Shown piece by piece: positions 21,391 to 49,327 of a stretch of DNA of 64,000 nucleotides (positions are counted from its first letter, which is position 1; the number at the start of each line of letters is the position of its first letter). Origin of the DNA: Candidatus Micrarchaeota archaeon. GTDB taxonomy: Archaea; Micrarchaeota; Micrarchaeia; Anstonellales; J096. The DNA lies in assembly GCA_015523325.1 (NCBI GenBank), contig WAKO01000015.1:9812-73811 (forward strand). Direction: 5' to 3'. The notes under the pieces were generated by a model, which searched no databases, was not told the origin of the DNA, and was given only the letters and a program-made list of their open reading frames with translations. The translations under genes were made by a program, and so were the position numbers.

Positions 21391-21440
21391 TGGAGGCTTT
21401 AGTTTGGGCTAGGAGTTGGAAAGGCCCCTTGCACTTAAAC
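21391..21440 (-). promoter_or_regulatory. 3' trailer half of the 16S pre-rRNA processing stem
   Basis: In RNA sense, GUUUAAGUGCAAGGGGCCUUUCCAACUCCUAGCCCAAACUAAAGCCUCCA pairs with the leader at 22937-23013. Confidence 0.75.
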
Positions 21441-22936
<1,496 letters not shown>

Positions 22937-31868: not shown

Positions 31869-34800
31869 TTAACTTGCTTTATTCTCTTTATTTTCCCCAC
31901 TTATGCTTGAACCATTATTTGAATCATTTGATCTAAGAGAAGCTACACCTATTCCCAAGGAAGAAACAACCCCATACAAGTCTGGCCCAAATAAATAACC
32001 TCTCCTAAATCCTGGTTTTTGAACTTCTTTAGGAGAATAAACAGGAGAAAGAACACTATAGAGAGTTGTTCTTTCTAATGGAGAGGATTCCTTCCTAAAT
32101 ATGTTTATAGCTTCTAAAGTATCTCCAAAATAGAGCATATCCATAGCAAATAATGAGTAGGAAAGCAAATAATTAGAAGGCTTATCATGTTCTAAAACAA
32201 TAGCCTCTCCTCCAAGCACTTCTTTAGGAAGTTCATTTTTATAGAGCATTCTATTGTACTCATAAAAAGAATTAAGCCTTTTATTTTGCTCTCCTTGCTC
32301 TCTTTGTCCCTCTGCTCCCCAATTAAAGTAGCTTCTAACCCCTCTGATAGATGTTTCTAAAGTTGATTCCCTAAATGGTTGGAGAGGGGAAATTGAGGCT
32401 TGTGAAGGATAGGTTTCTATTTTCTCAACTTCTCTATAAAGACCTTTCCCAAATAAAAGTTCTTCAAAACCAAACCTTCCTTCTTCTGTTTTTAAATCAT
32501 ATCTAGAATCTATTATTTTTATTGCTCCTTTTTCTCCAAAGATCTCTCTTTGGGCTTTTTCAAACTCTGTCTTTGGAACAATTTTATTCAATTCCTCAAA
32601 AAACTTGTCTCTATTAAAGGTATTTCCCTCTGTTGAAGCTTGGATCGCTTGAGAGAATCTCTTTCTAGCCTTTAAAGAAAGCTCCTCATCATTTCCATGT
32701 AGAACTCTATTTAATGCAACCAAATAAGTTAAGGATTTCCTTGCAAAATCAGGGTCTCTCATTTGTTCTTCAAACTTAGAGTAATCTATGTTTTTATCCC
32801 TCCTAACTTTCTTGAACTCAGTCTTTGCTACTTCTTTAATAAATCGTGGTTGGTTACCATATAAGAAGGATAGTCCTCTCAAAACTTGGGAAGCCAAATA
32901 ACCTTTAATAGGGCTTCTCTCATCTTCAAGAATAACCTCAACTCTTTCTATAGGAGTTGTTATTTTTTCTCTCCTTAAGAGCAAAGCTGGTTTTTCTGGA
33001 CTTGGAGGAGAAGGAGTAGTTAGGGAAATCTTTAGAGTAGGTTGAGGAATAGGAGTAGATTGTTGTTCTTGGGTTTCTAACGAAGCCCTAAGCTTTGAAA
33101 GAACTTTCAAAGATCTTAAATTAATAAAGGAAGTTGCAGCTTGCTCAAGGTTTGCTTCTTTTATATTATAGAGAATTCCAGCCTGAAGAGAAGAGAGGTT
33201 TTCATCAGCATAATCAACATTAAACTTATCCAAAACATCTCTAGAGAATTCCCATATACTTAGTTGTCCTTTATAAAAGTCGTTTATCCTTCTCTCCATT
33301 CCATTTATTAAATTAAATATTTGCTTTGACTCTTTATTCAGAGAAACTTGAGAAGGTTTTTCCTTATCTTTTTCTTCCTTTTCCTCTTTAGCAGTGCCAG
33401 AAGTCCCAACAGCCTCAACACCCTTATCCTTAGAAGGCTTAGGAGGTTTTACTATAGCTGCTTGTTTTAATGACGTTATTAAAGCTCTTCTTTGATTTTC
33501 ATCCAAATCATAAAATGAAAGTAGGTTATTAATTGTTTCTTCATCTCTAAAAATAGCTCTAAGTTTAGCTTTTGCCTCCTCTCTACTTGATTTTTCAAGG
33601 ATATTTGCTACAACAAAAGCTAAAGAAAAGATTTGGGCTTCATTAACGGAAAGGGGTTTTCCTCTCTTTTGTGCTTCTTTAAAGTACTCATAAACATCAC
33701 CATAGTTTCCTAAGGTGGAATCTAATCCAAAGGATTTTCTCTCGTTTTCAACAATTTCTTTATAGAATTCTCTAGCCTTTTCTCTCCTAACTATAAACTC
33801 TCTAACTTGGTCCAACCTCTCAATGTTTCCAGTTTTTCCTGCAATATGAAGGTGTAAACCAAATAAAGAAATTTGGCTAGCTAAAAACGCCTTTTCTTCT
33901 CCATTACTAGAAAAGAATTTACTTATCATTGTCCTCAAATTATTTTCCTCATCAATAACAAACTCTCCCCCCAGCAAAGTATAGAGCATAGAAGAGAAAA
34001 ATCCATGTAAAGTGTGATAATTGGAATTAACTCCTAGAACATCTCTTATCGCTTGACTTCCTCCAAGGAACGCATAAGCCTCTAAAACTGCAAGGTTATA
34101 GGAAATCTTTTCTAGTTCATTCGGAGATCTTACATTAAGGTTTAAACTACCATTCCATGCATTCATATCCACCAAATTCTTTTCAGCTTTTTTAGATTCA
34201 CTAGCTAAAATACTTAAAGCTGTAGAAGTGGAATAGTGTTCATGCAACATTCTTAGCTCTCCTAAAGAGAAATCATTAGCCTTTACTCCAAAAATTTTGT
34301 TTAAAGAATAAAGAAGGAGGGAATTGAGAACTTTTCCATACAAATTTATTATGTTTGCTAGGGCTTTTGCTTTTGTTGCTATTAGTTTTGAGCTCTCAGC
34401 TATTAATTGTTCCTTTTCTTTTTTGGTTTTAGTTTCACTTCCTTCAAATGCCTCCTCCTTTTTTAGAGCTTCTTTTGGAATTATAGAGTGAATCGCTTTG
34501 GAGAGGATGTTTGAAACTGCTGAGCTCGCAACGGTTAGGAGAGGAACAGATAATTCCATTGCAACTTGGGTTGTGGTTAGAGGGTGGGTTATGGATCTCT
34601 TTGCTGCTTTTGCCGCTTGTTTTACTGTTTTTAGAGAAGGTTTAACAGTAGGTTTTAGCACTCCTTTCTTACTTCCTAACCCATACATTAGCGCTCCTGT
34701 GAGGGTTGTAGCAACCCTAACCGCTGTGGTTTGGAGAACTCTTAATCCAGAAGTAACTAAACTTCTCTTAAGAGGTGAAACCTTGTTCCCTCCTAATAAT

Positions 34801-36518
34801 TTTTTTGTTATTTTTTGGCTTGCTAAAGTAGTTACCTTTTCTGTTCCTTTTTTAGCTAAAGACATTGCTGTTGTGGCGGCTTTTGCTGTTTTTGTATCAA
34901 CATACCTTTTTGCAAGCCCTCCTGAATAATTAACTCTCAAAGCTCTGGCTGTTCCTACTCTACTCATATCAAAGAAGAAGAAGGGATTGTTTCCACTCTC
35001 ATACATTGAAACAAATAATAGGCCAAACAAAAGAACTATGGGAAGGCAAATAGCTATATTGTAGAGTAAATTATCAACCCTCTCTGGAGAGATGGGGGTG
35101 AAAACAGAATAGCGGGAAATACTAATTATGGTTGGGTAATCTACTTGCTCTTCAGTACTGTAAGGGAGAGTGTAATTTATGTAGGCATCTCTTGAAATAC
35201 ATTGAGGTTGTGGGAGAGGTTCAATTATAGCTTCCCCACAAGTAGGGATATCAAAATAGTTTTCATAATTATCTATTCCAAACTCATCAATACATTTTTT
35301 TAAAGCACACGCATTCCCAAGCTTTGAAAAGCAAACAACAGCATTTGTTCTTGTATAGTATTTTTCCTCTATACCATTATCAACTAACAACTTACTCACA
35401 TTTATTGTTGCTCTTCCAAGCTCTTTTGTGTTTACCCTGCAAGCATATTTTTTATCAACAAAGTCTTTGTTAACCTTTTGCTTATATTCAACTATGAAGA
35501 GGAGGGAAGCATTTCTTAAAGGATAAAAACCAGGGTTTTCATAATTAAAAACTAGAGGAGTTGCATTAACAATTATGTTGTTCTTCTCATTTTTTTCAAT
35601 AACAGAAACCCTTCCATAAGAAAGGTCTTTCAGGTCTTGGTATCTAAATTCTCCAAATAAATAAGGGGAGCTAACAGTACAGGTTGGAATTGTTGATGGT
35701 TGATAAGGGTTTATGCATGGTCCTTTTCCAGGAGAGGTTATGCAGTTAAGGGAAAATTGAGAAGATTGTCTTACTCCAGTAGAAGAGTCTTCAATATCAA
35801 TTGCTTGACCGAAATTATATTCATAGGAAAAGTTTGCAATAAAATCTGAAATAATAGCATAGCTTGAAAGTAAAGGAGTAGCAATTTCAGAGTTACAAAC
35901 AAATTCAAAACCCTCCTCCAAATATTCATAACCTGGAGGTTTGCTTATAGGAGAGCTGCTTCCTAAAACATTAAAATAGGAAGAAGTTATTGTGTTTAGG
36001 TCAAAGCCTCCATTATTTTTTTCAAATTCACATCCAACCTTAATTGTATCTCCTGTGTTCATATCAATTAAAGTGAAATTCAAAAATACATCTGTTATAT
36101 CAGAATCTAGGGAAAAAGTATTGTCTACTATACCATTACCATCTTGTTGTAAACCAAGCATCAAAGGGCCAACTCCTCCACCCCCTCCATCGCCTCCTCC
36201 ATTTCCTCCATCGCCTCCATTACCTCCATTACCTCCTCCATTTCCTTGCCCTTGATTAATAACAGCATTTATAGAGTAAACCTTGCCCGTTATTACAAGC
36301 TCATCATTTAAACATGAATTCGGATATTGAAAAGAAACATCACAAATACAACCTGCTATCGCATTAACATCAGGAGCACCAGGATCATTTTGAGGAGAGC
36401 TTATAAATATAGGGGCTTCTATACAATTAGTAGGACAAGTTATAACAATGGAATGTTGGGAGGAAAAAGAGAAAGTTATTAGGAAAAGAAAAATCAAAAA
36501 GGGAAAAGCTCTCATCAA
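31869..36518 (-). CDS. Giant bitopic envelope protein: signal peptide, ~460 aa Cys-containing ectodomain with a Gly/Asn tract, one TM, and a ~1040 aa basic predicted cytoplasmic region
   Basis: 1549 aa. N-terminus MMRAFPFLIFLFLITFSFSS, a G/N/D tract at residues 90-117, a TM LLYNIAICLPIVLLFGLLFVSMY at residues ~483-505 (nt 35004-35072), followed by K/R/T/A-rich sequence consistent with the positive-inside rule. Confidence 0.8.
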   Translation of the reverse strand: MMRAFPFLIFLFLITFSFSSQHSIVITCPTNCIEAPIFISSPQNDPGAPDVNAIAGCICDVSFQYPNSCLNDELVITGKVYSINAVINQGQGNGGGNGGNGGDGGNGGGDGGGGGVGPLMLGLQQDGNGIVDNTFSLDSDITDVFLNFTLIDMNTGDTIKVGCEFEKNNGGFDLNTITSSYFNVLGSSSPISKPPGYEYLEEGFEFVCNSEIATPLLSSYAIISDFIANFSYEYNFGQAIDIEDSSTGVRQSSQFSLNCITSPGKGPCINPYQPSTIPTCTVSSPYLFGEFRYQDLKDLSYGRVSVIEKNEKNNIIVNATPLVFNYENPGFYPLRNASLLFIVEYKQKVNKDFVDKKYACRVNTKELGRATINVSKLLVDNGIEEKYYTRTNAVVCFSKLGNACALKKCIDEFGIDNYENYFDIPTCGEAIIEPLPQPQCISRDAYINYTLPYSTEEQVDYPTIISISRYSVFTPISPERVDNLLYNIAICLPIVLLFGLLFVSMYESGNNPFFFFDMSRVGTARALRVNYSGGLAKRYVDTKTAKAATTAMSLAKKGTEKVTTLASQKITKKLLGGNKVSPLKRSLVTSGLRVLQTTAVRVATTLTGALMYGLGSKKGVLKPTVKPSLKTVKQAAKAAKRSITHPLTTTQVAMELSVPLLTVASSAVSNILSKAIHSIIPKEALKKEEAFEGSETKTKKEKEQLIAESSKLIATKAKALANIINLYGKVLNSLLLYSLNKIFGVKANDFSLGELRMLHEHYSTSTALSILASESKKAEKNLVDMNAWNGSLNLNVRSPNELEKISYNLAVLEAYAFLGGSQAIRDVLGVNSNYHTLHGFFSSMLYTLLGGEFVIDEENNLRTMISKFFSSNGEEKAFLASQISLFGLHLHIAGKTGNIERLDQVREFIVRREKAREFYKEIVENERKSFGLDSTLGNYGDVYEYFKEAQKRGKPLSVNEAQIFSLAFVVANILEKSSREEAKAKLRAIFRDEETINNLLSFYDLDENQRRALITSLKQAAIVKPPKPSKDKGVEAVGTSGTAKEEKEEKDKEKPSQVSLNKESKQIFNLINGMERRINDFYKGQLSIWEFSRDVLDKFNVDYADENLSSLQAGILYNIKEANLEQAATSFINLRSLKVLSKLRASLETQEQQSTPIPQPTLKISLTTPSPPSPEKPALLLRREKITTPIERVEVILEDERSPIKGYLASQVLRGLSFLYGNQPRFIKEVAKTEFKKVRRDKNIDYSKFEEQMRDPDFARKSLTYLVALNRVLHGNDEELSLKARKRFSQAIQASTEGNTFNRDKFFEELNKIVPKTEFEKAQREIFGEKGAIKIIDSRYDLKTEEGRFGFEELLFGKGLYREVEKIETYPSQASISPLQPFRESTLETSIRGVRSYFNWGAEGQREQGEQNKRLNSFYEYNRMLYKNELPKEVLGGEAIVLEHDKPSNYLLSYSLFAMDMLYFGDTLEAINIFRKESSPLERTTLYSVLSPVYSPKEVQKPGFRRGYLFGPDLYGVVSSLGIGVASLRSNDSNNGSSISGENKENKAS
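36168..36251 (-). repeat. Imperfect short tandem repeats encoding GQGNGGGNGGNGGDGGNGGGDGGGGG
   Basis: The plus strand shows reiterated cctccat/tacctcc units (36181-36240). It is low-complexity coding sequence. Confidence 0.8.
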
Positions 36519-36572: not shown

Positions 36573-39500
36573 TTATTCAACTGGATAGCAGGTTGCATAC
36601 TTTATTCCTTGAGTAAATATTTCAGAGAGCTCTTGAGGGGATAAAGCTGTTGGATAGCAGTAGTTTTCCTCATTAAACCCTGGTGGAGGAATGTTAAAGG
36701 TTATAGGAGCTACATATTGAGAGGCAATAGCTACTGTTTTTGAGGTTTCATTATCACACAAAGAAAATCCAGTTTGGGAAAGAGAGAGGCCTATGAAATC
36801 TGATAGTTCTTCACTATACTCAGATATTTCAAACTCAGCTATTTCATCCTTCTTTATCTCACACCTTATTTTGCTTACACATTGTTTTTTAGGAATGCAA
36901 TCTGGAGTTTCACAATCATCAGCAACATCATAAGGCTGAGAAGACTTTAAGTTAACAAATCCTCCTAAACTCATAAGGTTCCTGCTAAATTGACAAATTC
37001 CTTCTGGAGAAGGGAGGAGGTAAAACCTCTTTCCAGGAATATTATTTTTGTTTAAAACATCCTCAAATTGAATTCCAATATTTCCATTGCTTATTAATGC
37101 GGATTTTCTATAATTTAAGTAAGAGAAGAAGAGCTCTAATTCACTCTCATTAGCATAAACAATATCATTTATGTAGAAGATTGTAGGAAGCCCAAGAGTA
37201 GAAAGGCTTAGCCTCGATATCTCTACAAGCTTGTCAACTTCACTCCTAGCTCTTAGCTCATCAAGCCCAATAATATTAAATCCTACTCTAAAAATAACTA
37301 CATCATATTTATCCTCTCTTTGGTCTTTAAATGGAGATAACTTGCTTAATCCCCTAGCATTATCCTCAAAGATTTCTTGTAAATCAGAAGTTTCCAAAGA
37401 GGAAAGAGGTTTATCAAAAGCAATTGAAATTCCTACCAAGCAATCTTTACAGCTAGCTTTTACAGCTTTTATTCTAGAGATAGTGTTTTGATTATTTACT
37501 GAATAACCTCTTTCAGAATAAAGGGCTTTATTATCAGAATCAAGGATTAATTTATTAGTTACTATTATTGCTGTTCCAGTATCTGCTTTTGAAAAGAAGG
37601 AGAAACCTCTTTCATTGTAAGGATCTCTTATAGCTAATTGCACATCTTGGAGAAGCTTTAGGAGAGGGAGGGAAAGAGAAAGTTCTTCAACACTAGGCTT
37701 AAAGAAAGGATCATATCCTTTATCAAGGTTTGTGTATTTAACCTCATAAAGGCTAGGATCATCAACAATCAAAACAGGAAGAATTCCTCTCCCCATATAG
37801 CTTATAAGCCTATCTTTAAGATAATAGTTGGAAGGATAGAAGTTTGGAGGGTTAAAAGATTCATTTGAATAAAACGTTACTCTAGGAGCAACCACAAACT
37901 CCTCTGATTTTGGGGCTTTTGTAAATACTCCATAAAAAGAAAAATTGGCTTCATCAGGAAGGTCTTGTAAGTCAAACCTATACCTTCCTTCTTCATAATC
38001 TTCCTCACTTCCTCCACTTACTTTTTCATAATTAATTGAAAACTTCTCTAAAGGAGGATCAGCATCAACTAAAGAAAGGAAATATAAATAAGCTTTAGAA
38101 GGGAGAGTATAGGAATAAAGGAATGTATTTGCTATTGGGTCAAGAAACTCATACTCCCAAAGCCTCTCCACTCTTATATACCTAGTCTCAACAGCTCCAG
38201 CATACCTCTTATCACAACCTATTCCATATGCTAAACATCCTTCCTTTCCCAAATATTTTCTATGAAGTTCCCAATCTACAGGGTTCCATTCCCAATAATC
38301 AATAAATCTAGAAGGAGGCTCCAATTTATCACAATCCTTATCTATCATGCAAGTGTATAGAACATCATACCATAAACTACGCAAACTACTTTCTTCAGGG
38401 TAATTTAAAATTATGGTTTCAATGAAAGGAGGAGTTGGAGAGAGTATTCTTCCAACCTCCTTTATTAACTCAGTCCCATCTATATTCTTTGAGAGGGCAA
38501 TTAGGTTTAGTGTTCCTCTAAAAGAGCTCTTTTCATCAAAAAAGGAAGTGAAATTAATAACATCTGGGATGTATTGGGAGGTTTTTGAAGAAATTTCTAT
38601 TGAGCTCTCTATTTCCTCAAAAGCAAGGTTTAGAGGGGAAGAGCCTTCACAATATCCAAACTCATTAACCCTCAAACCTGTTAGAGTGTCATTAGCAATA
38701 CATTTTCCAAACTTTCCATCAGAGATTTCATCTTTAAACACAAAAGCAGAAACAGCCATATCTCCAAAGCAAGTTCCTTCATACTCATCTCCAACCCAGC
38801 TTCCTAAGCAAAAGTATTTAGGAGGCAACTCAGCGCATAACTCTGGATTTATTGAATAAGGAGAATTACTAAGATTAAGCATTAAAGAATCTCCTTGATA
38901 AAGAGAGTTAGGGTATTTTGTTATATAAGGATTAAAGCAAAACGCATACTCTATTTCTTGGTTTTCATTGCAATTATCATAAACTGGAAAATCATTTTGG
39001 GATGTTCCTGAATAAGAGAGATAGTTTAAGTAGGTTGAATCTGTTTCATAATTTGAAGGAGAGGTTGAGGAAGGCCAAGCCTTTGGAGCTAAAAATAAGT
39101 AGTCCCTCAAATCTGATAGTCTGGCTAGAGATAGATCTTGGCCCTTTGCCCCATAAGATATTACAGGGATCCCACTCTCTATAACAGCACATCTCTTTCC
39201 ATCTTGAAAACCAAGATCTGTTTGCTTTTCAAAACCTATAGGAAGCATAGGAGAAACATCACTTGCTAAATCAAAGAATAAAAGAGAGTAGTTTACATCA
39301 ACCCAAGGGCCAACCTCTCCATAAGAGGCTAGGAAAAGTCTTTCCTTCTCATATTGCTCTACCAATTGCTCAAAGAACTCTGGATTTCCAGTAAAGTAGT
39401 TCATTATATACATTTCTTGAGTGTTCTCTTTTACAAAGGTTTTTGAAGGAGCAGGAATAGCTTCTCTTTCCAAAATAACTCCCCTAAGGAACGGTCCTCT

Positions 39501-41849
39501 TCCATCATCAAAGTATTTAACTCCTTTAAAGCTTCCTATGTTTGAAGGAAATAATGGAGAGTTAAAATCAGTTATTCTTCCATTATCATCCACTATTGAG
39601 ATTGGACCATTTTCTCCTAACTCCTCTGGGAAAAGCCAAGCGTCTTCCCTTTCCTTAATATTATAACCTCCTCCAGATGTATTAACCAAAGTGAATATAT
39701 CGTCTCCTCTTAAGTTAGTATAACACCTATAATCGCTTGGAGATAAATCTTCATTAAGTATTGGATAAGATTTATCAAACAGATTGGTTCCTACAAATAT
39801 AACTTCAGTTTGTGGACCTACAGATGCAAAAGCTATAGAAAATGTAGAGGAGTAATATGAATCAGAAATACTAGGTATTAATGAATTTCCTGTTTGATCT
39901 TTACACCCTCCAAATATATTTAAGTTTCCGCACACGTCTTCCAAAAACCCTCCAGGATCTGCATCAAGAGTTAGATTTACATCATTGTTTGGATATCTTT
40001 GGTCTATGTTTCTACACACATCTTCCAAATTAATATCCTTTATATAATTTCTTCCATCAAATATTATTCCAACATATTTATCAGATATTTCTTTTCTTAT
40101 ATCTTGAGCGCTACAGTAGTAAGGATCTGTACTATTAATGTTTTGGTTCTCTCTTGCAGTTATATTATAGTCAACATAAACAAAAATACTTCCTCCCAAA
40201 TGAGCAAGATAAATAAACCTATCGCTTCCTTCTCCATAATAATAAGGTTTCATTACAAGAACTTTTGGATGTTTTTCAACCAAATCTTTTTCTGAGAGAT
40301 AGGGTTTGTTTGGGGAGGATTGGCTAATTGGAGTTCCATCAAATAAATTATAGGAGTCAGGATATAAATAGTTGCAATCACCTCCTGTACAGCCACAAGG
40401 AACTTCTACAAGCTCTCCATTTTCAATTGCTGTGCAAGAGCTCCTATAATAATCTTTTTTATTGCAAAAAGAGGAAAGGCAATCTTGCCCACTCCTACAT
40501 TCATATTCAGCCCCAATCCTTTCCCTTCCCTCCTTATCCATACTTCCAAATTTAAACTGTTCATAATAAGTAGGAACTCTCCTTAATAATTCTGGATAGG
40601 AGTTGAGAGGGGCTCCTTCTAAAATTGTTATTGTTGAGTTCTCATAAATGCCTTGGGTTATGTTTCTAATTTTTCCAAGAGAACTTGATTTAGCTTTAGA
40701 AAAAGTAGGAAGGTAGTACTCATCTCCCTTTCTTTCAGAAGAAAATTCAAAACTCCCTAAATCTTGAGAAGAGCTAACCAAGCTTTGAAGAATTTCTTTA
40801 TCAAAAGATAAGCCAAATAAATAAGGAGTTACATAAACCTCATATCCCTTTTCATTAAACAACTCTCCATTATTTAAGAAAGGTATTTGCTTACTTTTGT
40901 ATTCTTGAGAATAGCAAAAAGAAAGAGAAGAGAAAGGTTTTTTCTCATTAGGAGAGAAGAGAAAATCTTGCTTTGCATTTAACATACATTCCGCAAAAGT
41001 AGTGAAGTTATTTATCCTCTCAGAACTTGAAGGAGAATAACCATTCAACACCCAATAATCTCCTTTCTTAACACAAAGTTGCTGATTATTTATCATTTCC
41101 TCAGTTAAATAAGTATAATAATCATCCACAAACCCAGAAGGGTTTAAGGCTAACATGTAGGAGGAGAAAGGAACTAAAGTTCTTGCTATCTCAAAGTCCT
41201 CAAAACTCCTTCCAGCCCCTATCCTATAGGTTACGAATAAAGCTCTTTGTGACTTAAGCTTTTCTAATGAGGAAGGAGTTAGTTCTCTAAACTCACACCT
41301 CGCATAAAGGAAATTAGATTGAGTTGAAACTAAATATTGGAAGTTATAATTAGGCAATCTATAGGTTAAGGAAACTCCTTCTCCAAAAACTCTTCTATTC
41401 TCTTCAGCATCAGCTATGGAAAAGGATTCTTTTTGAGGAGAATAATACATAGAAGGATAACATACTAGGTAAGTGCAACCAAATTCACACTTCTCTCCTG
41501 CCAAAAAGGTTCCAGGACAAGGAGAAACTTCTAAAGGAGAGGGAAACTCAACTATCTCATTATTAACTTTATCCCTTAAAGCACATATCTTACAAAATCC
41601 TGTTTCTTGAAATTCACTACAATCATACCAGTTTCCTCCACACCCTCCACAATCAATTCCAGAAGGACATTGTTTTTGGGAAAGTCCAACATAATCATCT
41701 GAAAATACTTGAGGAAGTGCATTGTTTTCCAAAACATCCTCCATGTTTGTTATACAAAGCTCTCCAACCTCTCTTAAACATCCTTGCAAAAATAATAGAG
41801 AGAGGAAAAGGATTATAAGGAAAGGCTTAAGGCCAAGTTTTATTCTCAT
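36573..41849 (-). CDS. Giant Cys-rich secreted or lipobox-like surface protein
   Basis: 1758 aa. N-terminus MRIKLGLKPFLIILFLSLLFLQGC, many Cys clusters (CPSGIDCGGCGGNWYDC; CRSGQDCLSSFC; CGCTGGDC), and no C-terminal TM. Confidence 0.8.
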   Translation of the reverse strand: MRIKLGLKPFLIILFLSLLFLQGCLREVGELCITNMEDVLENNALPQVFSDDYVGLSQKQCPSGIDCGGCGGNWYDCSEFQETGFCKICALRDKVNNEIVEFPSPLEVSPCPGTFLAGEKCEFGCTYLVCYPSMYYSPQKESFSIADAEENRRVFGEGVSLTYRLPNYNFQYLVSTQSNFLYARCEFRELTPSSLEKLKSQRALFVTYRIGAGRSFEDFEIARTLVPFSSYMLALNPSGFVDDYYTYLTEEMINNQQLCVKKGDYWVLNGYSPSSSERINNFTTFAECMLNAKQDFLFSPNEKKPFSSLSFCYSQEYKSKQIPFLNNGELFNEKGYEVYVTPYLFGLSFDKEILQSLVSSSQDLGSFEFSSERKGDEYYLPTFSKAKSSSLGKIRNITQGIYENSTITILEGAPLNSYPELLRRVPTYYEQFKFGSMDKEGRERIGAEYECRSGQDCLSSFCNKKDYYRSSCTAIENGELVEVPCGCTGGDCNYLYPDSYNLFDGTPISQSSPNKPYLSEKDLVEKHPKVLVMKPYYYGEGSDRFIYLAHLGGSIFVYVDYNITARENQNINSTDPYYCSAQDIRKEISDKYVGIIFDGRNYIKDINLEDVCRNIDQRYPNNDVNLTLDADPGGFLEDVCGNLNIFGGCKDQTGNSLIPSISDSYYSSTFSIAFASVGPQTEVIFVGTNLFDKSYPILNEDLSPSDYRCYTNLRGDDIFTLVNTSGGGYNIKEREDAWLFPEELGENGPISIVDDNGRITDFNSPLFPSNIGSFKGVKYFDDGRGPFLRGVILEREAIPAPSKTFVKENTQEMYIMNYFTGNPEFFEQLVEQYEKERLFLASYGEVGPWVDVNYSLLFFDLASDVSPMLPIGFEKQTDLGFQDGKRCAVIESGIPVISYGAKGQDLSLARLSDLRDYLFLAPKAWPSSTSPSNYETDSTYLNYLSYSGTSQNDFPVYDNCNENQEIEYAFCFNPYITKYPNSLYQGDSLMLNLSNSPYSINPELCAELPPKYFCLGSWVGDEYEGTCFGDMAVSAFVFKDEISDGKFGKCIANDTLTGLRVNEFGYCEGSSPLNLAFEEIESSIEISSKTSQYIPDVINFTSFFDEKSSFRGTLNLIALSKNIDGTELIKEVGRILSPTPPFIETIILNYPEESSLRSLWYDVLYTCMIDKDCDKLEPPSRFIDYWEWNPVDWELHRKYLGKEGCLAYGIGCDKRYAGAVETRYIRVERLWEYEFLDPIANTFLYSYTLPSKAYLYFLSLVDADPPLEKFSINYEKVSGGSEEDYEEGRYRFDLQDLPDEANFSFYGVFTKAPKSEEFVVAPRVTFYSNESFNPPNFYPSNYYLKDRLISYMGRGILPVLIVDDPSLYEVKYTNLDKGYDPFFKPSVEELSLSLPLLKLLQDVQLAIRDPYNERGFSFFSKADTGTAIIVTNKLILDSDNKALYSERGYSVNNQNTISRIKAVKASCKDCLVGISIAFDKPLSSLETSDLQEIFEDNARGLSKLSPFKDQREDKYDVVIFRVGFNIIGLDELRARSEVDKLVEISRLSLSTLGLPTIFYINDIVYANESELELFFSYLNYRKSALISNGNIGIQFEDVLNKNNIPGKRFYLLPSPEGICQFSRNLMSLGGFVNLKSSQPYDVADDCETPDCIPKKQCVSKIRCEIKKDEIAEFEISEYSEELSDFIGLSLSQTGFSLCDNETSKTVAIASQYVAPITFNIPPPGFNEENYCYPTALSPQELSEIFTQGIKYATCYPVE

Positions 41850-41858
41850 GATCTCCTC

Positions 41859-42896
41859 CTAAATAAGCCTGTTTAATAAAGACCCTATGTCTGCTCCTGT
41901 ATAGATTCCTTTGCTTAAAATAAGAGAGAAGTTGTTTATAAATATTGCAGTCAACGAGAGCGAAACAATTTGAGAAATTAAGAACTCAGTAGAAAGAATT
42001 AATCCTAAATCTTCCTCTATAGATTGTGGTTCTCCTAACGTTGGGTTGAATCCTCTAACCAATTGTTGTTCTGGGAGGATTAGGGCACTAGTGGCTACTA
42101 ACTTACAAAATGCTTGGTCAGCTTCAACAAAAAACTCTTCCTTATCTTCTAATATTAATTTTGGAACTCCAAAAAAGAACATTGCAGTTGTTATTGGATA
42201 AACATAATAAAACCCTATGGAAAGAGCTATAAGGAAGCTTCCTGCTGCTCTAAAGAAAGGAATTACTCTTAAAATTAAACCAAAGATCAGGAAATAGCCC
42301 ATGCTATCCTTTATATATCCTAAAGCTGAGTAAGCAACTGATAATCCAACAGCTATTGAGGTATCAATACTAGCCCTAATTATTAATTCATTTCCTCTCT
42401 TTATTGAAGAGAAAGAAGGATCTCCAAGGATTGGGTAGGAAAAGATAGAGAAGGTGGTACCTCCTTCTTTCAAATAATTAGAGGCTAACCTAGCATTTTT
42501 CATAGCTAATAAAAAGGCAGAGTTCATATTGTCAAATACAAGTGGTCTCAAATAGGACTCAATAAACCCTATTGTTCCTTCTGTTGGAGTGAAGATGAAA
42601 GGATAGAAGATTGTAGCAAGCCATTCAATTATTTTAAAGAGGAGAAAAAGTCCTGCCCAGAGAAGGGCAACTGCAATACTATCCAATATCTCAGCCTTTG
42701 CTTTAACAACTCCTTGTTCATCACTAAATATTTTAGCAAACATATACCTCAAAACTGCTACTGCAAAAAATATTATTACTCCAATCAAGAATAGCTTTTC
42801 AAAGGATGCTATTTCATTAGGAGAGAGAAAAGCTGTTATTGTTGGCTCTTGGGAGAGATAAGGAAGATGGGAATTTAAAAGAACTAACTCAAGCAT
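41859..42896 (-). CDS. Polytopic membrane protein, paralog 6 of a six-member tandem family
   Basis: 345 aa. Carries the signature RVIPFFRAAGSFLIALSIGFYYVYP (nt 42195-42269), a TM1-charged loop-TM2 N-terminus, and a C-terminal TGAD tail. Confidence 0.8.
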   Translation of the reverse strand: MLELVLLNSHLPYLSQEPTITAFLSPNEIASFEKLFLIGVIIFFAVAVLRYMFAKIFSDEQGVVKAKAEILDSIAVALLWAGLFLLFKIIEWLATIFYPFIFTPTEGTIGFIESYLRPLVFDNMNSAFLLAMKNARLASNYLKEGGTTFSIFSYPILGDPSFSSIKRGNELIIRASIDTSIAVGLSVAYSALGYIKDSMGYFLIFGLILRVIPFFRAAGSFLIALSIGFYYVYPITTAMFFFGVPKLILEDKEEFFVEADQAFCKLVATSALILPEQQLVRGFNPTLGEPQSIEEDLGLILSTEFLISQIVSLSLTAIFINNFSLILSKGIYTGADIGSLLNRLI

Positions 42897-42939
42897 ATTA
42901 CCCCTTTCTCAGAGCAAATATAAAATTTTAATGGAAAAA

Positions 42940-44031
42940 TTACCAAGTAATTATTCCGCTCATTCTTATAAACATCTCCATAAGATTATTGCTTTCCCCT
43001 AAAAGCCTTAGTAAAGATCTAACAACAACAGCCATTATTATCAAATTTATAGAGCCAAACAAAACTACCCTAAATATTAATCCCGCATAGGCCTCAATTA
43101 TATTTGAAACATTTATAACAACTCCTGATTTATCTTCAATAATAACATTTGTTCCACTTCCCTTAATCTTCCATTCATCAGTTAAAGTTCCCAAAGAGAG
43201 TTGAAGAAAAGATTGGCTTATGGAAGGAATTCTATCATTAGTTAGCTTAGAAGCTGAGGAGAAATCGGTTGCAATCAAATCATTTGAATTCAAATTTGGT
43301 AAGCCAAGAACATACGCTTCTAAAACTATTAAAAGAGGGTAAAAAACATAAAAAGAGAGGATTAAGGCAAATAGCACATTAGCAAAGGTTCTAGTGAATG
43401 GAATTAATCTCATAACTATCATTATTGAGAGAACAGCTACAATGTTTTGAGAGAGAAAGAACTTTATAAGAACTAGCTGGGAAAATGCAAAAAGAAAAAC
43501 AGTTGTGAAAAGCAAAGAGGAGATTTGGAATAAAAAGCGAGTAGCCCACTCTAAATCAGAAAAAGGATAAATAAAGGTTTGGGGAGCTCCTAGCAAACAA
43601 ATTAAAAAACTATTTGAAGCACATTTTGAGATGCTTATTCTTGTTAAATAAAGCAAGTGCATTAAAGCCCAATTATTTGCTGCTGAGAGTTCTAAGGAGG
43701 AAGCAGTGAGGGAAAGTGAATAATCATAAGCAGCCTCATAAAAACAATCTCCTTGGAGTATTCCTTGCTTTCCTGTAATGCTCTCCATAAAATCATTCAG
43801 CAAAGATGAGGAGGTGTCTTTGAAAAAAGAAACTATTATTATTAGAAAAACTATTATGAAACCATCTGCAATAACATTCCATATTTCTTCTCTTGCCCAA
43901 AAGGATACTTTTTCATCCCCTATTATGCGTGAGGCTATGAAAGCTATTGCTATTATTCCGAATGAAACAAGAACACTTAAAGAGAGTAAAGAAACATCAA
44001 TTGAAAATGCTGTGGAACATAAATCTGCCAT
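42940..44031 (-). CDS. Polytopic membrane protein, paralog 5
   Basis: 363 aa. Signature RLIPFTRTFANVLFALILSFYVFYP (nt 43336-43410) and C-terminal RLLGESNN. Confidence 0.8.
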   Translation of the reverse strand: MADLCSTAFSIDVSLLSLSVLVSFGIIAIAFIASRIIGDEKVSFWAREEIWNVIADGFIIVFLIIIVSFFKDTSSSLLNDFMESITGKQGILQGDCFYEAAYDYSLSLTASSLELSAANNWALMHLLYLTRISISKCASNSFLICLLGAPQTFIYPFSDLEWATRFLFQISSLLFTTVFLFAFSQLVLIKFFLSQNIVAVLSIMIVMRLIPFTRTFANVLFALILSFYVFYPLLIVLEAYVLGLPNLNSNDLIATDFSSASKLTNDRIPSISQSFLQLSLGTLTDEWKIKGSGTNVIIEDKSGVVINVSNIIEAYAGLIFRVVLFGSINLIIMAVVVRSLLRLLGESNNLMEMFIRMSGIITW

Positions 44032-44038
44032 CTTATCC

Positions 44039-45148
44039 TCATCCTCCTGAAATGTAGTAGGTTAACCTTCCTATTATGAATGGGCTTATCTCAGCTCCAA
44101 GTATCTTCGCTATTCCTCCAACAATAGAAACAAAAGTTAGTAATGTTATTCCCTGCGCCAATATTACAAAAAACACAAAGGAAGAAATAACACTACCTGA
44201 AGAGGTTATTGCATTCTTAACCTTAGATAAGTAAGAAGTTAGTTTTGAGTTAGGGCAAGGAAAGACTAAAGCTTCTACTCCTGAAAGCTCAACTTTTATA
44301 GAGTTATAGAAGGAATTTATTTGGTTTTGTATTGCTGCTTGGCCAGTAAAGTAAGTGTTAACAACAGCATTTGAAACTAAGATGGAGAAGGGCATTATTG
44401 AATACAAACCTATTGCTAATGCTAAGAAAAATGCTCCTCCACCTCTAGTTATTGGATTAGCTCTAAGTATTATTCCAATTGCAAGCAAAACAGTTATTGC
44501 TTCTTGGGAAGAGAGTTGTTCTATTAAAAACCTCTGAAACTCTAAAGCCATATAAGCAATTCCCAAAAAATAAGAAAATCCAGACATTGGTCTTATCACC
44601 GCATTATAAGCAGTGCATGGACTTAGAGAGGCTCCAGCATCTGCAGCAGGGTTTGATAAAAAACCTCTAATTCCACTACTTTCAGGATCACTACTTCTTG
44701 GAAATTCTATGGAAGTGGAGGAAAGGAAAGAAACCTGAGAAGTTAGAGAGGCCATAGCACTAGCATCTCTTAAAAAGGAAGAATGAGCATTTAGAATATC
44801 GCTCAAAACTCCTGCATTATAATCAAGAACTAAAAGGGAAGAGCTAATCAATGCATTTCTAGAAGCATTTGCCCCTGTAGTGTAGGAGTATATTGTTGCT
44901 CCTCCTATCTTCTTATTTATATAATCTGCCAACAAACCAAATAAATTATTGGCTACATCAGAAAATAGGAAAGACGTTAAAGCAACAAACAAAGCTAGGA
45001 AAAGAACATATTCAAAGAACTCGTTTCTTGAAATTATTATTAGGGAGGAGTTTTGGAGAGCCTTGCCTATCATAAACATTAAACTATAGAAGAGGACTGG
45101 AAAAACGATGATAGGGGCTAAAGGGGAGAGCTCAACCATATAACTCAA
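44039..45148 (-). CDS. Polytopic membrane protein, paralog 4
   Basis: 369 aa. Signature RANPITRGGGAFFLALAIGLYSIMP (nt 44390-44464), preceded by QRFLIEQLSSQEAI, with C-terminal KILGAEIS. Confidence 0.8.
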   Translation of the reverse strand: MSYMVELSPLAPIIVFPVLFYSLMFMIGKALQNSSLIIISRNEFFEYVLFLALFVALTSFLFSDVANNLFGLLADYINKKIGGATIYSYTTGANASRNALISSSLLVLDYNAGVLSDILNAHSSFLRDASAMASLTSQVSFLSSTSIEFPRSSDPESSGIRGFLSNPAADAGASLSPCTAYNAVIRPMSGFSYFLGIAYMALEFQRFLIEQLSSQEAITVLLAIGIILRANPITRGGGAFFLALAIGLYSIMPFSILVSNAVVNTYFTGQAAIQNQINSFYNSIKVELSGVEALVFPCPNSKLTSYLSKVKNAITSSGSVISSFVFFVILAQGITLLTFVSIVGGIAKILGAEISPFIIGRLTYYISGG

Positions 45149-45224
45149 CCTACATTCTTTAACAATCTTTTCTATTTCTTTTCTATTTTTTCAAATTTAT
45201 TTTTTTCCCTTAATCCCAAGATTC

Positions 45225-47207
45225 TTACCTAAAGAGCTTGTTTATTGCTGGAAGGAACATATCTCCCTCCATAAATGAAGAGAATCCCGCAACACTATAA
45301 ATTGTTGCAATTAGAGCTAGTAAAGGAATTCCATAAGTAGCAAATATTACCTTTCCTAAATCCAATAGCTGAGATTGTTCATTTGCAAACAAAACAGTTA
45401 CAAGAGGGGCCCTATTAGCACAAAGACTACAATCCACATAAGTTGGATAATATCTTAGGTTGGTTGGGTAGTTTTCACATCCAGAACAAGTTCCATAAGC
45501 GCTTGGCAAAGGTTCCACAACAACCTCAAAATAATTTTTAAGATTTTGTCTATTAATGAGGAGGGTTGACCAATCCTCATAATTAAATATTCCTTTTGAT
45601 TGCTCATACCATCCATTTCCTCCAAAACAATTGTATTCAGCAAAGCAAACGTCCTCTGTATAATTATCAAATTTTAAAATGTAGTTGCTGCCTGTGTAAT
45701 AAGCATCAATACTCCTACATTGAGTAGGGCAAAAAACATTAAAGCTATCTTTTGTTCCAGGAACTATATTTGGAAGGCTCCTACAATCAGTTGGGCACTC
45801 AATCTCATACTTTTGAATGTCATCAGAAGGAGAAGAGAGCTCAAATATCTCATTATAAAGTTGCTCATTCTCATATGCATACATCTTCTTAAAACATTGA
45901 GGATAATTATCATACAAAACTTTGCAAGCTCTCTCTGCATCTCTACATTGAATTGAATCATCTGGGTATGGGAGGGTTCTACACTCCTCAAAACAATAAA
46001 GCCCTGTTGTGTCTTGAGGAGTAGCGTTAGGGGAAAGAGGGGTTAAGGTTAATCTACTCCCTCTCCTTATCTCGTAAAGTTGCTCAAAACCTGCTTCTTC
46101 AGAATATCCTTTCAATGTTGCTAAGGAAACAACATCATTAGCATAATCTAAAGCACCTAGCTCTCTTGCATAATACTCACAAGAGTAGAATGTTGTAGAA
46201 GTTTGAGGATCAACAAATGTTTCTGTTTCCCCTCTAATAAATTCAGGAGCAAATTGGTAGAGGGCTATTTCATTACTAAAAACTTGCTTTGGATTTGTTT
46301 TATCATAAAAAGCTATTACATTGTTAAAGCAAACTGAAGGGCAAACTTCATAAGAAGATTCTTGCAATTGAGAGATTGGTTGGAAGAAAGGAAAGTAGAA
46401 GAGAAACATAAATGTGGGGTAAAATAGCATTATCCCTAAACCAACAGCAATTAGAGTAGAACCTATTCTCCTACTAAATATAAAAATTCTTAATAGAATT
46501 CCTACAGCCAATATAGCCGGGCCAAATAAGGAGGTGGAAAGCTTAAGAGTAAAGAAGGATACTACAACTCCAATATAAGCAAACTCAAAGAAATCTCTTA
46601 GTATTAACTTTGGATAAGAAGAAGCTCCTTTATCATACTCATATCCAAAACTAGAATAAGCTGCAATTAGGTTTTCTATTCCAATATGAAAACCCAAAGT
46701 TACTTGGGATTTGGCTATTTCCTTGTTTATCTCAATAACTTTATTTTCCATTGGTTCTAAATAGGAGTTCTTTAAGTAGTTAAACACAAAGTTATCCAAA
46801 CAAAATCCATAACTGTTTTGAGGATCACAAGCAATAGCATAATCTTTTTCAAGGCTAACTAAGCCAACCAAAAAATCAACAAATGCTAGAGCAATTATTA
46901 GGAACATCACTATAGCTGTATTTGCTAGGAGTTCCTTTACTTCTATTCTGAAATAATACTTAAGGATTTGTAAATTAAAGAGATCTCCAAGCATATAAAG
47001 CAAAGCTGTTATAAAAACAGCAATAGCTAAAGAAAGGATTGCTAAAGCCTGCCAATTCTTCAAAATATCAAACAATATGCCAGAAGGAGCATTTTGGAGG
47101 TCTTGAAACCTTTGTTCTAGAGAAGTGGAAAAAGTTATAGCTAAAATAAAGGCAAGGAAGAAAATAAAAAGAAAATATCTGGATCTCTCTTCTTTCATAC
47201 TATTCAC
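45225..47207 (-). CDS. Polytopic membrane protein, paralog 3, with a ~330 aa Cys-rich extracytoplasmic insertion
   Basis: 660 aa. Signature RIFIFSRRIGSTLIAVGLGIMLFYP (nt 46416-46490). A Cys-rich domain follows (CFEECRTLPYPDDSIQCRDAERAC; CPTDCRS; CPTQCRS; CSGCENY), then a final TM. Confidence 0.8.
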   Translation of the reverse strand: MNSMKEERSRYFLFIFFLAFILAITFSTSLEQRFQDLQNAPSGILFDILKNWQALAILSLAIAVFITALLYMLGDLFNLQILKYYFRIEVKELLANTAIVMFLIIALAFVDFLVGLVSLEKDYAIACDPQNSYGFCLDNFVFNYLKNSYLEPMENKVIEINKEIAKSQVTLGFHIGIENLIAAYSSFGYEYDKGASSYPKLILRDFFEFAYIGVVVSFFTLKLSTSLFGPAILAVGILLRIFIFSRRIGSTLIAVGLGIMLFYPTFMFLFYFPFFQPISQLQESSYEVCPSVCFNNVIAFYDKTNPKQVFSNEIALYQFAPEFIRGETETFVDPQTSTTFYSCEYYARELGALDYANDVVSLATLKGYSEEAGFEQLYEIRRGSRLTLTPLSPNATPQDTTGLYCFEECRTLPYPDDSIQCRDAERACKVLYDNYPQCFKKMYAYENEQLYNEIFELSSPSDDIQKYEIECPTDCRSLPNIVPGTKDSFNVFCPTQCRSIDAYYTGSNYILKFDNYTEDVCFAEYNCFGGNGWYEQSKGIFNYEDWSTLLINRQNLKNYFEVVVEPLPSAYGTCSGCENYPTNLRYYPTYVDCSLCANRAPLVTVLFANEQSQLLDLGKVIFATYGIPLLALIATIYSVAGFSSFMEGDMFLPAINKLFR

Positions 47208-48138
47208 TTCCTAATGAGAATACATCAAAAATTTTCTTAAAGTTTGAGATAAAGCTGAAAACCAATCCAAGTATTAGATTTGGAATAAATACAGAGGTTA
47301 AAGTATAGATTTGCAAAAACGCTAAATCCTCACAAGTTATTGGAGTTAGAAAATAAAAAGAAAAACCAGAAGGAAGCTTTCCCTCCAACTCATCACAAAG
47401 GTCTAAATAAAGGCTTGCTATTGGATTGGAGAAGTCAATAAAAGGATAGAGAAAAACTGAATAAAGAGAAGGAAGTAGGAAAAATATTCCTATGAATAAG
47501 GAATACATGAAATCTCCTACAGAAGTAAAGCCTGGAATAATCCTTATTATTAAAGCTAAGAGAAGGAGGATAAAAATAGCATTGCTACTTACTAATAATT
47601 CTAAAATAAATCTTTGAATGGAGAGAGTAGCCAGGATTGCGTTTAAAGCTCCTATTCCCATATTAGCATTTTCCACAAATATAATATTTTTTGGAGCTGA
47701 TCTAGAAGGGAAAAAAGCAATCCCAGAGCCAAAGCTACTTATTTGCCTATAAACTATTGAATTAGGGCCAAACTCAGTAATTATTTGGTCTCTATAATAC
47801 TTTATCTTTCTTATTATTTGAAGTTGCATTATTTTTATTGACTCTCCTCCAGCTGTAACCAAAAACTCATAATCATCTCCTGCTGGAAGTAAATAGGAGA
47901 AAGTAAAGCAAAATAAAGAGAGCAAAGGTCCTGTTATTGCAAAAAATAAGGCAGAAATTGCAAAGTTTCTCATGAGATCTTGAAAAAGCAAAACTGCTCT
48001 TCTATCGTTTGGATTAGCTCTTGTATAAACAAAGAGAGCTATTGAGGAAAAAGCTAGGATTAAGATTAAAACTGCAATAGTTCCTTGATTTTTTAGCAAT
48101 TCATTAACCAAAGCTGTTGAAATGTCAAGGCACTTCAT
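47200..48138 (-). CDS. Polytopic membrane protein, paralog 2
   Basis: 312 aa. Signature RIIPGFTSVGDFMYSLFIGIFFLLP (nt 47470-47544), preceded by QRFILELLVSSNAI. It overlaps the next gene by 8 nt. Confidence 0.8.
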   Translation of the reverse strand: MKCLDISTALVNELLKNQGTIAVLILILAFSSIALFVYTRANPNDRRAVLLFQDLMRNFAISALFFAITGPLLSLFCFTFSYLLPAGDDYEFLVTAGGESIKIMQLQIIRKIKYYRDQIITEFGPNSIVYRQISSFGSGIAFFPSRSAPKNIIFVENANMGIGALNAILATLSIQRFILELLVSSNAIFILLLLALIIRIIPGFTSVGDFMYSLFIGIFFLLPSLYSVFLYPFIDFSNPIASLYLDLCDELEGKLPSGFSFYFLTPITCEDLAFLQIYTLTSVFIPNLILGLVFSFISNFKKIFDVFSLGSE

Positions 48139-48145
48139 GCTATCC

Positions 48146-49327
48146 CTAAATTAATCTTTCCACCCCATATAGGAAGAACTCTCCTCCTAGAATTATTGAT
48201 AAAGATCTTATAAAGGAAATCACTACTAAAGCAACCACAAAATAAAACATAAAGATGCCTACTGTAAAACCAATAAGAGCTTGTGAAAAAAGAGGGAAAA
48301 ACCTGCTTGAAAAAGCGCTATCAACCAAAAAGATTTGGTTTCCTGTAATATAAGACATTAACCCCCCATATGAAACTGCTTTTACCCCATTAATTAAAGA
48401 TGTTAGAGCTATTGAAGCAACATCAGAAATTATTGGAATCCCAATTAAAGCTGTTATGTTTAAAGTGTAAGCTGTTAAGGTTAAAGCCCTTGAGAAATAA
48501 GCAAAAGTTCTAAAAAATCCATTTATGAAATTTCCGTAGGAGAGGAGGGAATTTAAAGCTCCTGCCTCAGCCTTAGCATTATCAATTAGAGCAGTTATTC
48601 CAAGCAAAGAGTTGTCATCAAGTAATGAGTTCGTTATGTCTGAAGCCAAAACAACTGTCATAGGTAAAACTAAACCCGCCCCTATTCCAATAGCAACCAT
48701 TGTAGAGCCAAGCTTTCTGGTTAAAGAAAATGTCCTAAAAAATATTCCCAAAGGAATAAAGAACTTTATTGAAAAAAACTCAAAAATTAGCATTAACTGC
48801 TTAAGGCCAGACAAATAAGTTAAGTGGTCAAAAATGCTTGAATAAAATATTAATAATTTATCCAAAAGGATAGAGAAAGAAGAGGTCTGAAAGCTCCCTC
48901 CTACCTTAAACCCAATAGCTCTAAAAACAAAGCTTACAGAGTTTGAAACTGAGATGCTAGAAACAGTAGCTGCAGGAGGAATGTATTGGGAAACCAAATC
49001 ATACATTCTAAATAAAAAAGGGTTTATTATATTATCATCTATTTTAGAGATTGCTAGATCCACAAAAGAACTCTTAGGCTTTTGTAAAAAGTTTGAAGCT
49101 AAGCTATCAAAATAGTCCCAACCAACTGCAATAACTAGTAGTAAAACCAAGTTTAGGATTATGGTCTTAACTTCCTCTCTATAAGTTATTATCCCCCTTT
49201 CATTTCTTGAGACTAAATTAAAGTAATAGAGAGCTGTTGCAAAGGAGAGAGAGGCTACTGAAGCAACTAAGATTAAATCTGAATATTGGAGCATATCAAA
49301 AGGAGAGAGATTTGTCAAATGAGACAT
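48146..49327 (-). CDS. Polytopic membrane protein, paralog 1 (first gene of the locus)
   Basis: 393 aa. Signature RTFSLTRKLGSTMVAIGIGAGLVLP (nt 48662-48736) and C-terminal IILGGEFF. Confidence 0.8.
   Translation of the reverse strand: MSHLTNLSPFDMLQYSDLILVASVASLSFATALYYFNLVSRNERGIITYREEVKTIILNLVLLLVIAVGWDYFDSLASNFLQKPKSSFVDLAISKIDDNIINPFLFRMYDLVSQYIPPAATVSSISVSNSVSFVFRAIGFKVGGSFQTSSFSILLDKLLIFYSSIFDHLTYLSGLKQLMLIFEFFSIKFFIPLGIFFRTFSLTRKLGSTMVAIGIGAGLVLPMTVVLASDITNSLLDDNSLLGITALIDNAKAEAGALNSLLSYGNFINGFFRTFAYFSRALTLTAYTLNITALIGIPIISDVASIALTSLINGVKAVSYGGLMSYITGNQIFLVDSAFSSRFFPLFSQALIGFTVGIFMFYFVVALVVISFIRSLSIILGGEFFLYGVERLI

Follow-up and report, generated by a model that had tools for sequence, protein, structure and literature searches.

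What kind of protein is encoded by the giant cysteine-rich gene that stands directly after an array of membrane-protein genes in Candidatus Micrarchaeota archaeon (assembly GCA_015523325.1)? We studied this gene in a window of 64,000 nucleotides (contig WAKO01000015.1, positions 9,812 to 73,811), where it occupies 36573..41849; its protein is called P0001 and its source genome (701 kb, 86.6% complete) G000. An initial annotation, made from the DNA letters alone, had described an orphan Cys-rich secreted protein with no recognisable domains, and had proposed an adhesin, an envelope scaffold or a substrate of the neighbouring array. Our analysis demonstrated that P0001 belongs to a fast-evolving, undescribed family of giant Cys-rich proteins with a conserved lipobox, from one order of Micrarchaeia (Anstonellales by record titles). 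We propose that it would be the archaeol-anchored, disulfide-rich extracellular subunit of a complex encoded by an eight-gene cluster, and that it carries a pseudo-enzyme barrel with a glycan-binding or structural role. Taken as a whole, this statement seems to us evenly poised between right and wrong, and its parts differ in strength as described below.

The open reading frame (ORF) of the initial annotation is real and uninterrupted and encodes 1758 amino acids (N-terminus MRIKLGLKPFLIILFLSLLFLQGC), but it lies on the minus strand; the plus-strand reading of the same interval contains many stops and was rejected. All coordinates of P0001 features below refer to the minus strand of the window. 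The 1758-residue precursor gives a mature protein of 1734 residues, 196.6 kDa and an isoelectric point (pI) of 4.5. It is evident that cysteine is abundant, with 50 residues (2.84%; the G000 median is 0.51%, its 95th percentile 2.86%), while histidine occurs only three times. A single hydrophobic segment was found, at residues 1-29, so that the lack of a C-terminal transmembrane segment noted in the initial annotation was borne out, as was its description of a Cys-rich secreted protein. The number of N-x-S/T sequons (15) shows no enrichment over the ~14 expected from composition, and no internal repeats were found in P0001.

The signal peptide (residues 1-23, 41781..41849) consists of the n-region MRIKLGLK and the hydrophobic core PFLIILFLSLLFL, an architecture common to all homologs, and is followed by the lipobox L21-Q22-G23-C24 (41778..41789), with Cys24 predicted to be lipidated and to begin the mature chain. 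Positions -3, -1 and +1 fit the consensus [L/V/I]-3 [A/S/T/V/I]-2 [G/A/S]-1 C+1. Gly23 and Cys24 are invariant in 21/21 sequences of our alignment A1, in which identity is 17-23% (41% for the closest homolog). The Gly-Cys pair is also present in every complete member of a second set of ~30 sequences, and in each complete homolog inspected the hydrophobic core ends in x-Gly-Cys at position 14-28. Moreover, an LGCC motif ~9 residues past the lipobox Cys is conserved in most homologs. The Gln at -2 recurs in two further lipobox ORFs of G000 and in the homologs P0003 and P0004. A crude census of G000 found 14 ORFs with an [L][AFQV]GC signal, 13 of them besides P0001 and three with LQGC. Lipid anchoring is well supported by the invariant Gly-Cys together with the 13 other proteins bearing the same type of signal, and what the initial annotation had called lipobox-like deserves the name. 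Archaeal lipoproteins carry thioether-linked archaeol, which is installed by AliA/AliB; lipobox proteins are prevalent in DPANN, where AliA (arCOG02177) occurs with some gaps (PMC12462473). Thus, P0001 is very probably a lipoprotein tethered to the membrane via a predicted lipidation of Cys24.

The protein is not an orphan, since a divergent family with strict synteny exists. Its members are not easily seen from P0001. Neither P0001 nor the family profiles matched Pfam, NCBIfam or PDB sequences, and our literature search found no description of the giant lipoprotein family. P0001 alone retrieved P0003 only (1988 amino acids, 34% identity) from 5.8 billion protein clusters, and P0003, P0004 (1762 amino acids), one fragment and P0006 only from 1.84 billion representatives; a profile query of a word-indexed library added P0004 only. 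A six-frame search of relatives gave weak collinear matches in 30/61, located inside ORFs of 1200-1950 amino acids. We then scanned GTDB genomes for loci with the motif [KV]DRYMNYL, seeded by six closer sequences, and obtained 36 further loci, whose records all bear the title Candidatus Micrarchaeota, Micrarchaeia or Anstonellales. With a profile built on the C-terminal half, the family was detected in 61/65 genomes of taxonomic family f9, in 20/23 of f6 and in all smaller families of the same order, and in 0/75 and 0/54 of the two largest other families of the class. This profile under-detects in P0001's own taxonomic family, where one 'negative' genome has the array and a lipobox giant of 2047 amino acids with 66 Cys. 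Overall, the members have 1130-2050 amino acids and 43-105 Cys and occur in nearly all sampled genomes of the order; a profile search of G000 found no paralog of P0001. In the closest genome pair the giants are 34% identical, compared with 48-53% for the adjacent membrane proteins, which makes the giant the fastest-evolving member of the cluster. As far as sequence can tell, this faster divergence speaks for surface exposure of the giant.

P0001 has the collinear set of family features, that is, the lipobox, FRxGxG...DRY, the FEC Cys-knot, GWCEPC, the CxxC barrel and the Cys tail (alignments A1, A4 and A5). The matches of the family hidden Markov models span residues 63-927 and 936-1738, and several motifs in them are degenerate. 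The N-terminal Cys-rich region (residues 25-135, 41445..41777) has 11 Cys, of which C32, C111, C121, C125 and C130 are near-invariant. It is followed by the conserved N-module (residues 181-250, 41100..41309), with an occupancy of 1.0 and the highest conservation, whose family motif FRFGVGxSFxDFExARxYFPxSDxxCxxNPxGxxDRYMNYL is degenerate in P0001 (YRIGAGRSFEDFEIARTLVPFSS...NPSGFVDDYYTYL). The small Cys-knot module (residues 447-492, 40374..40511) has the pattern (F/Y)EC-x4-DC-xS-xC-x(6-7)-R-xxC...CGC, with E450, C451, C457 and C462 invariant and R469, C472 and C485 near-invariant. A variable middle of low conservation and many insertions (residues 500-930, 39060..40352) separates it from the block 'FGxC...(F/Y)GWCEPC(T/S)xxTxA' (residues 1040-1080, 38610..38732), where G1048, C1050, G1065 and C1067 are invariant; P0001 reads FGKC...FGYCEGSSPLNLA, its GWCEPCT part being FGYCEGS. 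The insertion at residues ~1100-1330 (37860..38552) is found only in P0001 and its closest relatives P0003 and P0004, with an occupancy of 0.0-0.4 elsewhere. Similar large insertions in these three proteins at ~330-420, 510-780 and 840-930 are likewise absent from the typical members of 1300 amino acids. The C-terminal tail (residues 1626-1758, 36576..36974) has seven Cys, of which C1646, C1657, C1663, C1698 and C1754 are invariant and C1731 is near-invariant. In total, ~23 of the 50 Cys of P0001 stand at invariant or near-invariant columns of A1. This Cys conservation, with no transmembrane segment beyond the N-terminal one, supports the extracellular location given in the initial annotation and a predicted richness in disulfides.

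The genomic setting gives a clue to what the protein works with. Upstream of P0001 lie six paralogous genes for polytopic membrane proteins (41859..49327, minus strand), the third of which encodes a Cys-rich ectodomain; P0001 starts 9 nt past the stop of the sixth. Fifty-four nt downstream of P0001 lies a gene for a single-pass giant of 1549 amino acids (31869..36518, minus strand), whose family is kept in the cluster. The position directly after the array, already recognised in the initial annotation, is kept in relatives. At 20/20 loci fetched, six membrane genes (again with the Cys-rich ectodomain in the third) are followed by a Cys-rich giant of 1160-1990 amino acids with 44-105 Cys and a single N-terminal hydrophobic segment, and the next gene usually encodes a protein of 1000-2000 amino acids with two hydrophobic segments. 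The same order of six membrane genes and then the giant was seen in the loci of the motif scan and on the contig of P0004, making more than 50 loci in total; one subclade has the single-pass giant divergently upstream of the array instead of after the lipoprotein. In ~45/50 loci the stop codon of membrane gene six is at most ~15 nt away from the start codon of the giant, or the two overlap, which makes co-transcription very probable, often along with translational coupling. The suggested functional link to the array is upheld by this strict synteny and start/stop coupling, and we infer that P0001 is a member of a complex with the array proteins.

The link could also be of another kind, in which the six-protein array would export or assemble P0001 as its secreted substrate or cargo, as the place of the gene immediately downstream would suggest. 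On the other hand, P0001 has an ordinary Sec-type lipobox signal, like the 13 unrelated proteins scattered over G000, so that no dedicated exporter is needed, and two arrays lack such a neighbour. Without any specific support for the substrate idea of the initial annotation, we judge it very improbable. The two arrays in question are second six-gene arrays with no giant after them (L097:3387-10710 in G010:C19 and L100:1561-8646 in G005:C4), and both also lack the Cys-rich ectodomain in paralog 3 or in any other paralog. This is a small observation, but it agrees with the giant being a physical partner of the paralog 3 ectodomain. With regard to a possible relation of the array to type IV secretion or Ced-like systems, the best match to VirB6/TrbL (PF04610) in G000 was paralog 5 with 14.9 bits, compared with a cut-off of 25.9 bits, and similar sub-threshold matches were obtained in 6/14 control genomes.

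Several other genes were noticed around the cluster. The conserved genes downstream of it in other genomes, which encode a ~190-aa protein, a Lon_C protease-domain protein, an ELP3-like radical SAM protein and a PP-loop protein, were rejected as cluster members, being housekeeping genes or having homologs elsewhere in G000. In another genome of the same taxonomic family (L052:5291-7491 in G006:C3), two proteins encoded after the giant have N-termini (MKKGFIFSLDAF... and NKKGFFFIVLAF...) that resemble archaeal signal peptides of the type IV pilin type (class III), and their G000 homologs are on another contig (C24:6314-8318). Just past the cluster in the window, on the opposite strand (29230-30201, plus), is a protein with a lysylphosphatidylglycerol-synthase-type transmembrane region (PF03706, E 4.8e-30).

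To what the giant itself may do, structure models provide a partial answer. AlphaFold models were made from alignments of 35 sequences, separately for the halves 25-930 and 931-1758. In the C-terminal half the mean predicted local distance difference test (pLDDT) score was 51, with residues ~1340-1600 confident at 70-91 and displaying six strand-helix units. In the N-terminal half (mean pLDDT 43) only the Cys-rich region at residues ~25-115 was modelled confidently (64-91), and Foldseek returned no structural match for this half. The alternating beta/alpha, TIM-barrel-like domain covers residues ~1335-1625 (36975..37847), with a CxxC (C1467, C1470) at a strand start. Almost all of the top 50 Foldseek matches in the PDB were TIM-barrel glycoside hydrolases (GH), namely GH5 (5hnn, E 2.8e-5), GH10 (1i1x), GH53 (2gft) and GH26 (6q78), with GH18 weaker; the matches to the four former families had E values of 3e-5 to 1e-3, target-normalised TM-scores of 0.37-0.46 and a root-mean-square deviation (rmsd) of 8-13 A. 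Foldseek gave no match among viral structures. Thus, the structural check that the initial annotation had proposed disclosed a TIM-barrel-like module at ~1340-1620, a type that it had named, while most of the protein was modelled poorly; its phrase 'no recognisable domains' holds for sequence searches of Pfam, NCBIfam and the PDB but not for the fold.

This fold raises the alternative that P0001 is a stand-alone, lipid-anchored surface hydrolase that feeds on or breaches the envelope of a host or a bacterium, its array neighbourhood being conserved but functionally loose. Typical members of the family indeed keep several Asp, Trp, Tyr, Arg and Lys at strand ends; the residues conserved in the family barrel include an Asp after the first strand, Trp/Tyr, Arg1459, C1467/C1470, Asp1516, a Lys-Pro before a strand and Asp1562. 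However, the Glu pair of clan GH-A (acid/base after strand 4, nucleophile after strand 7) was not found among the barrel columns conserved at >=60%, and the family has N, D or G where the putative nucleophile would be. Moreover, P0001 replaces about half of the conserved polar barrel residues (I1361, R1521, L1554, K1582, L1599). Neither P0001 nor 21 family members matched any GH family in Pfam, the barrel segments gave no such match even at E<=10, and NCBIfam and PDB-profile searches likewise gave none. Judging from the model, the domain is probably a TIM-barrel-like module outside clan GH-A that is non-catalytic in P0001. The missing Glu pair and the loss of polar residues lead us to read it as a glycan-binding or structural module and not as an enzyme; glycan binding as such is a tentative suggestion, which we would not rate as the likelier outcome.

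The barrel is not restricted to the giants. The profile scan also matched ORFs of 630-980 amino acids, and the four that we fetched (L084:2253-5018 in G199:C31, and L080, L082 and L083) have a lipobox, an N-module related to that of the giants and the barrel as well. Barrel homology between the giants and these shorter lipoproteins (630-1000 amino acids) was supported by hhalign with a probability of 98.6% and an E value of 1.3e-15. Nearly the whole order has the shorter family, which also occurs in several sister families, but a profile search did not find it in G000. In one of its proteins an M23 peptidoglycan metallopeptidase domain (PF01551, E 2.4e-25) forms the C-terminal part, a hint that the barrel module acts in connection with cell walls or glycans. 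Such a combination of N-module, barrel and peptidase would suit a hydrolase, as would the large extracellular murein-transglycosylase proteins of other DPANN lineages, for which an attack on bacterial walls was proposed (PMC8204110). However, the M23 fusion was met only once, and the strict synteny and start/stop coupling across several families argue for a function together with the array. Together with the lack of the Glu pair and of any GH-family match, these points make a free-acting hydrolase unlikely in our opinion. Apart from this, the barrel was also observed inside other giant ORFs (1744-2891 amino acids) of sister orders without the giant family (G190:C4, G124:C1, G096:C17, G199:C1 and G081:C1).

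Could P0001 be the S-layer protein itself, or a general scaffold of the cell envelope? The former idea has some appeal, because P0001 is large, acidic, secreted and probably membrane-anchored, and because Pfam S_layer_N (PF05123) was undetected in G000 and found in only 4/61 genomes of the order. But the Micrarchaeota S-layer protein described so far, SLP_Mh, is ~101 kDa, has PF05123 and contains almost no sulfur-containing residues (bioRxiv 10.1101/2021.04.28.441871), whereas P0001 has 50 Cys and no S-layer domain. Moreover, G000 encodes outside the window a clear homolog (C18:17346-20045, ~875 amino acids, 6 Cys, E 2.5e-120) of a relative's PF05123-matching protein of 919 amino acids with 4 Cys, and this homolog is likely the S-layer protein of the organism, judging by that similarity. 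We rejected the S-layer identity of P0001, which is largely refuted by these data and hardly tenable. No well-known enzymatic or S-layer domain, which the initial annotation would have taken as a refutation, explains P0001 on its own: the barrel lacks conserved catalytic residues and a sequence family, and the S-layer homolog is encoded elsewhere.

The latter idea is that P0001, with the array and the single-pass giant, forms a housekeeping scaffold in the pseudoperiplasm, for spacing or anchoring the S-layer or for growth or division of the envelope, with no host interaction. This idea overlaps our preferred explanation, from which it departs only in the task assigned to the complex. A scaffold would suit a cluster that nearly every genome of the order has in one copy, the size, acidity and probable membrane tether of P0001, and the envelope of Micrarchaeota, in which one membrane is covered by an S-layer (bioRxiv 10.1101/2021.04.28.441871). 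This contrasts with the lack of profile matches to the family (0/75 and 0/54) in the two largest other families of the class, where a general S-layer function might be expected, and with its fast divergence, a pattern that is seen more typically in proteins exposed to a partner or to the surroundings. We therefore consider a purely housekeeping role to be a minor prospect, comparable to that of the hydrolase.

The explanation that we prefer is as follows. P0001 would be exported by the Sec pathway as a prolipoprotein and probably cleaved before Cys24, which is probably then thioether-linked to archaeol. The result would be an acidic protein of 197 kDa with several domains and heavy disulfide bonding, held at the outer face of the cytoplasmic membrane under the S-layer. 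There it may serve as the lipid-anchored extracellular subunit of an envelope complex with the six polytopic paralogs and the single-pass giant. Its degenerate glycosidase-type barrel would be a glycan-binding or structural module, and may dock the complex to glycans of the cell's own S-layer or of a host cell surface. A more specific version of this complex is an extracellular arm of a trans-envelope machine of the order, which builds a symbiont-host contact or conduit. Such a machine would combine six non-interchangeable polytopic paralogs, a single-pass giant with a large cytoplasmic domain and the lipid-anchored giant; its degenerate barrel would recognise surface glycans of the host, and the rapid divergence would track host specificity. 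This is a speculative possibility, to which we give clearly less credit than to the envelope complex in general.

Several facts weigh against the preferred explanation. The lipobox has Gln at -2, which is not in the bacterial consensus. Most of P0001 is poorly modelled (mean pLDDT of 51 and 43 for the C- and N-terminal halves), and the barrel call depends on TM-scores of 0.37-0.46, a large rmsd and six visible beta/alpha units. Gene order is the single line of evidence for complex membership, and the similarity of the array to VirB6/TrbL is sub-threshold (14.9 bits). Finally, a near-universal, single-copy cluster could equally serve a housekeeping function of the envelope and not host contact.

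Two further features of the window were recorded. An ORF at 9158-12505 (minus strand) encodes 1115 amino acids with 33 Cys and is possibly another surface protein; its sole Pfam match is a thrombospondin type 3 repeat at 24 bits, slightly below the cut-off. The window is archaeal, with ~34% GC and a complete archaeal 16S rRNA gene at 21440-22934 (minus strand). This gene is isolated, and as 23S and 5S genes were not detected within the 64 kb, the rRNA genes appear to be unlinked.

Molecular accounts of attachment and exchange between DPANN archaea and their hosts are scarce, and most of their lineage-specific surface proteins are unannotated. Here an apparent orphan has become a defined family whose lipid-anchor signal is conserved, whose modules are mapped and whose place is fixed within an eight-gene envelope cluster of nearly all genomes of one order; it also offers a candidate domain for glycan recognition. 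The predicted lipidation of Cys24, the barrel domain and the array partners are testable targets. Work on archaeal lipoproteins has opened as a field only recently, and a probable lipoprotein of ~200 kDa with ~50 Cys is a striking example for it.

Giant surface proteins of DPANN symbionts have a precedent in the SPEARE proteins of Nanohaloarchaeota, which are said to mediate host contact and reportedly have serine protease, adhesion and restriction-endonuclease domains as their hallmark. Pfam detected no domain of these kinds in P0001 or the 21 family members searched. The murein-transglycosylase proteins of Pacearchaeota and Woesearchaeota, which were proposed to act at the cell surface of a partner, resemble P0001 in being very large, lineage-specific and extracellular, in belonging to DPANN with small genomes and in having a domain of glycan-processing type (PMC8204110). 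On the other hand, P0001 has no detected lytic transglycosylase domain, belongs to another phylum, is lipid-anchored by prediction and is tied to a membrane-protein cluster. SLP_Mh and P0001 are alike as secreted envelope proteins of one phylum, but the former is a nearly Cys-free PF05123 protein of ~101 kDa and the latter a 197-kDa protein with 50 Cys. With regard to the fold, residues ~1340-1620 of the P0001 model resemble the (beta/alpha)8 hydrolases of clan GH-A (GH5, GH10, GH26 and GH53), though without sequence similarity or the conserved Glu pair, with six visible beta/alpha units, with a CxxC at a strand, and inside a giant lipoprotein that is predicted to be disulfide-rich. In its signal, P0001 is like the archaeal lipobox lipoproteins of the AliA/AliB pathway of Haloferax volcanii, with a charged n-region, a hydrophobic core and [hydrophobic]-x-Gly-Cys, and differs from typical ones in its size of 197 kDa, a far higher Cys content and Gln at -2. 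Thus, P0001 combines elements that are each known, namely the archaeal lipobox, a TIM-barrel-like fold and the giant lineage-specific surface proteins of DPANN, in an architecture and a genomic setting that are undescribed.

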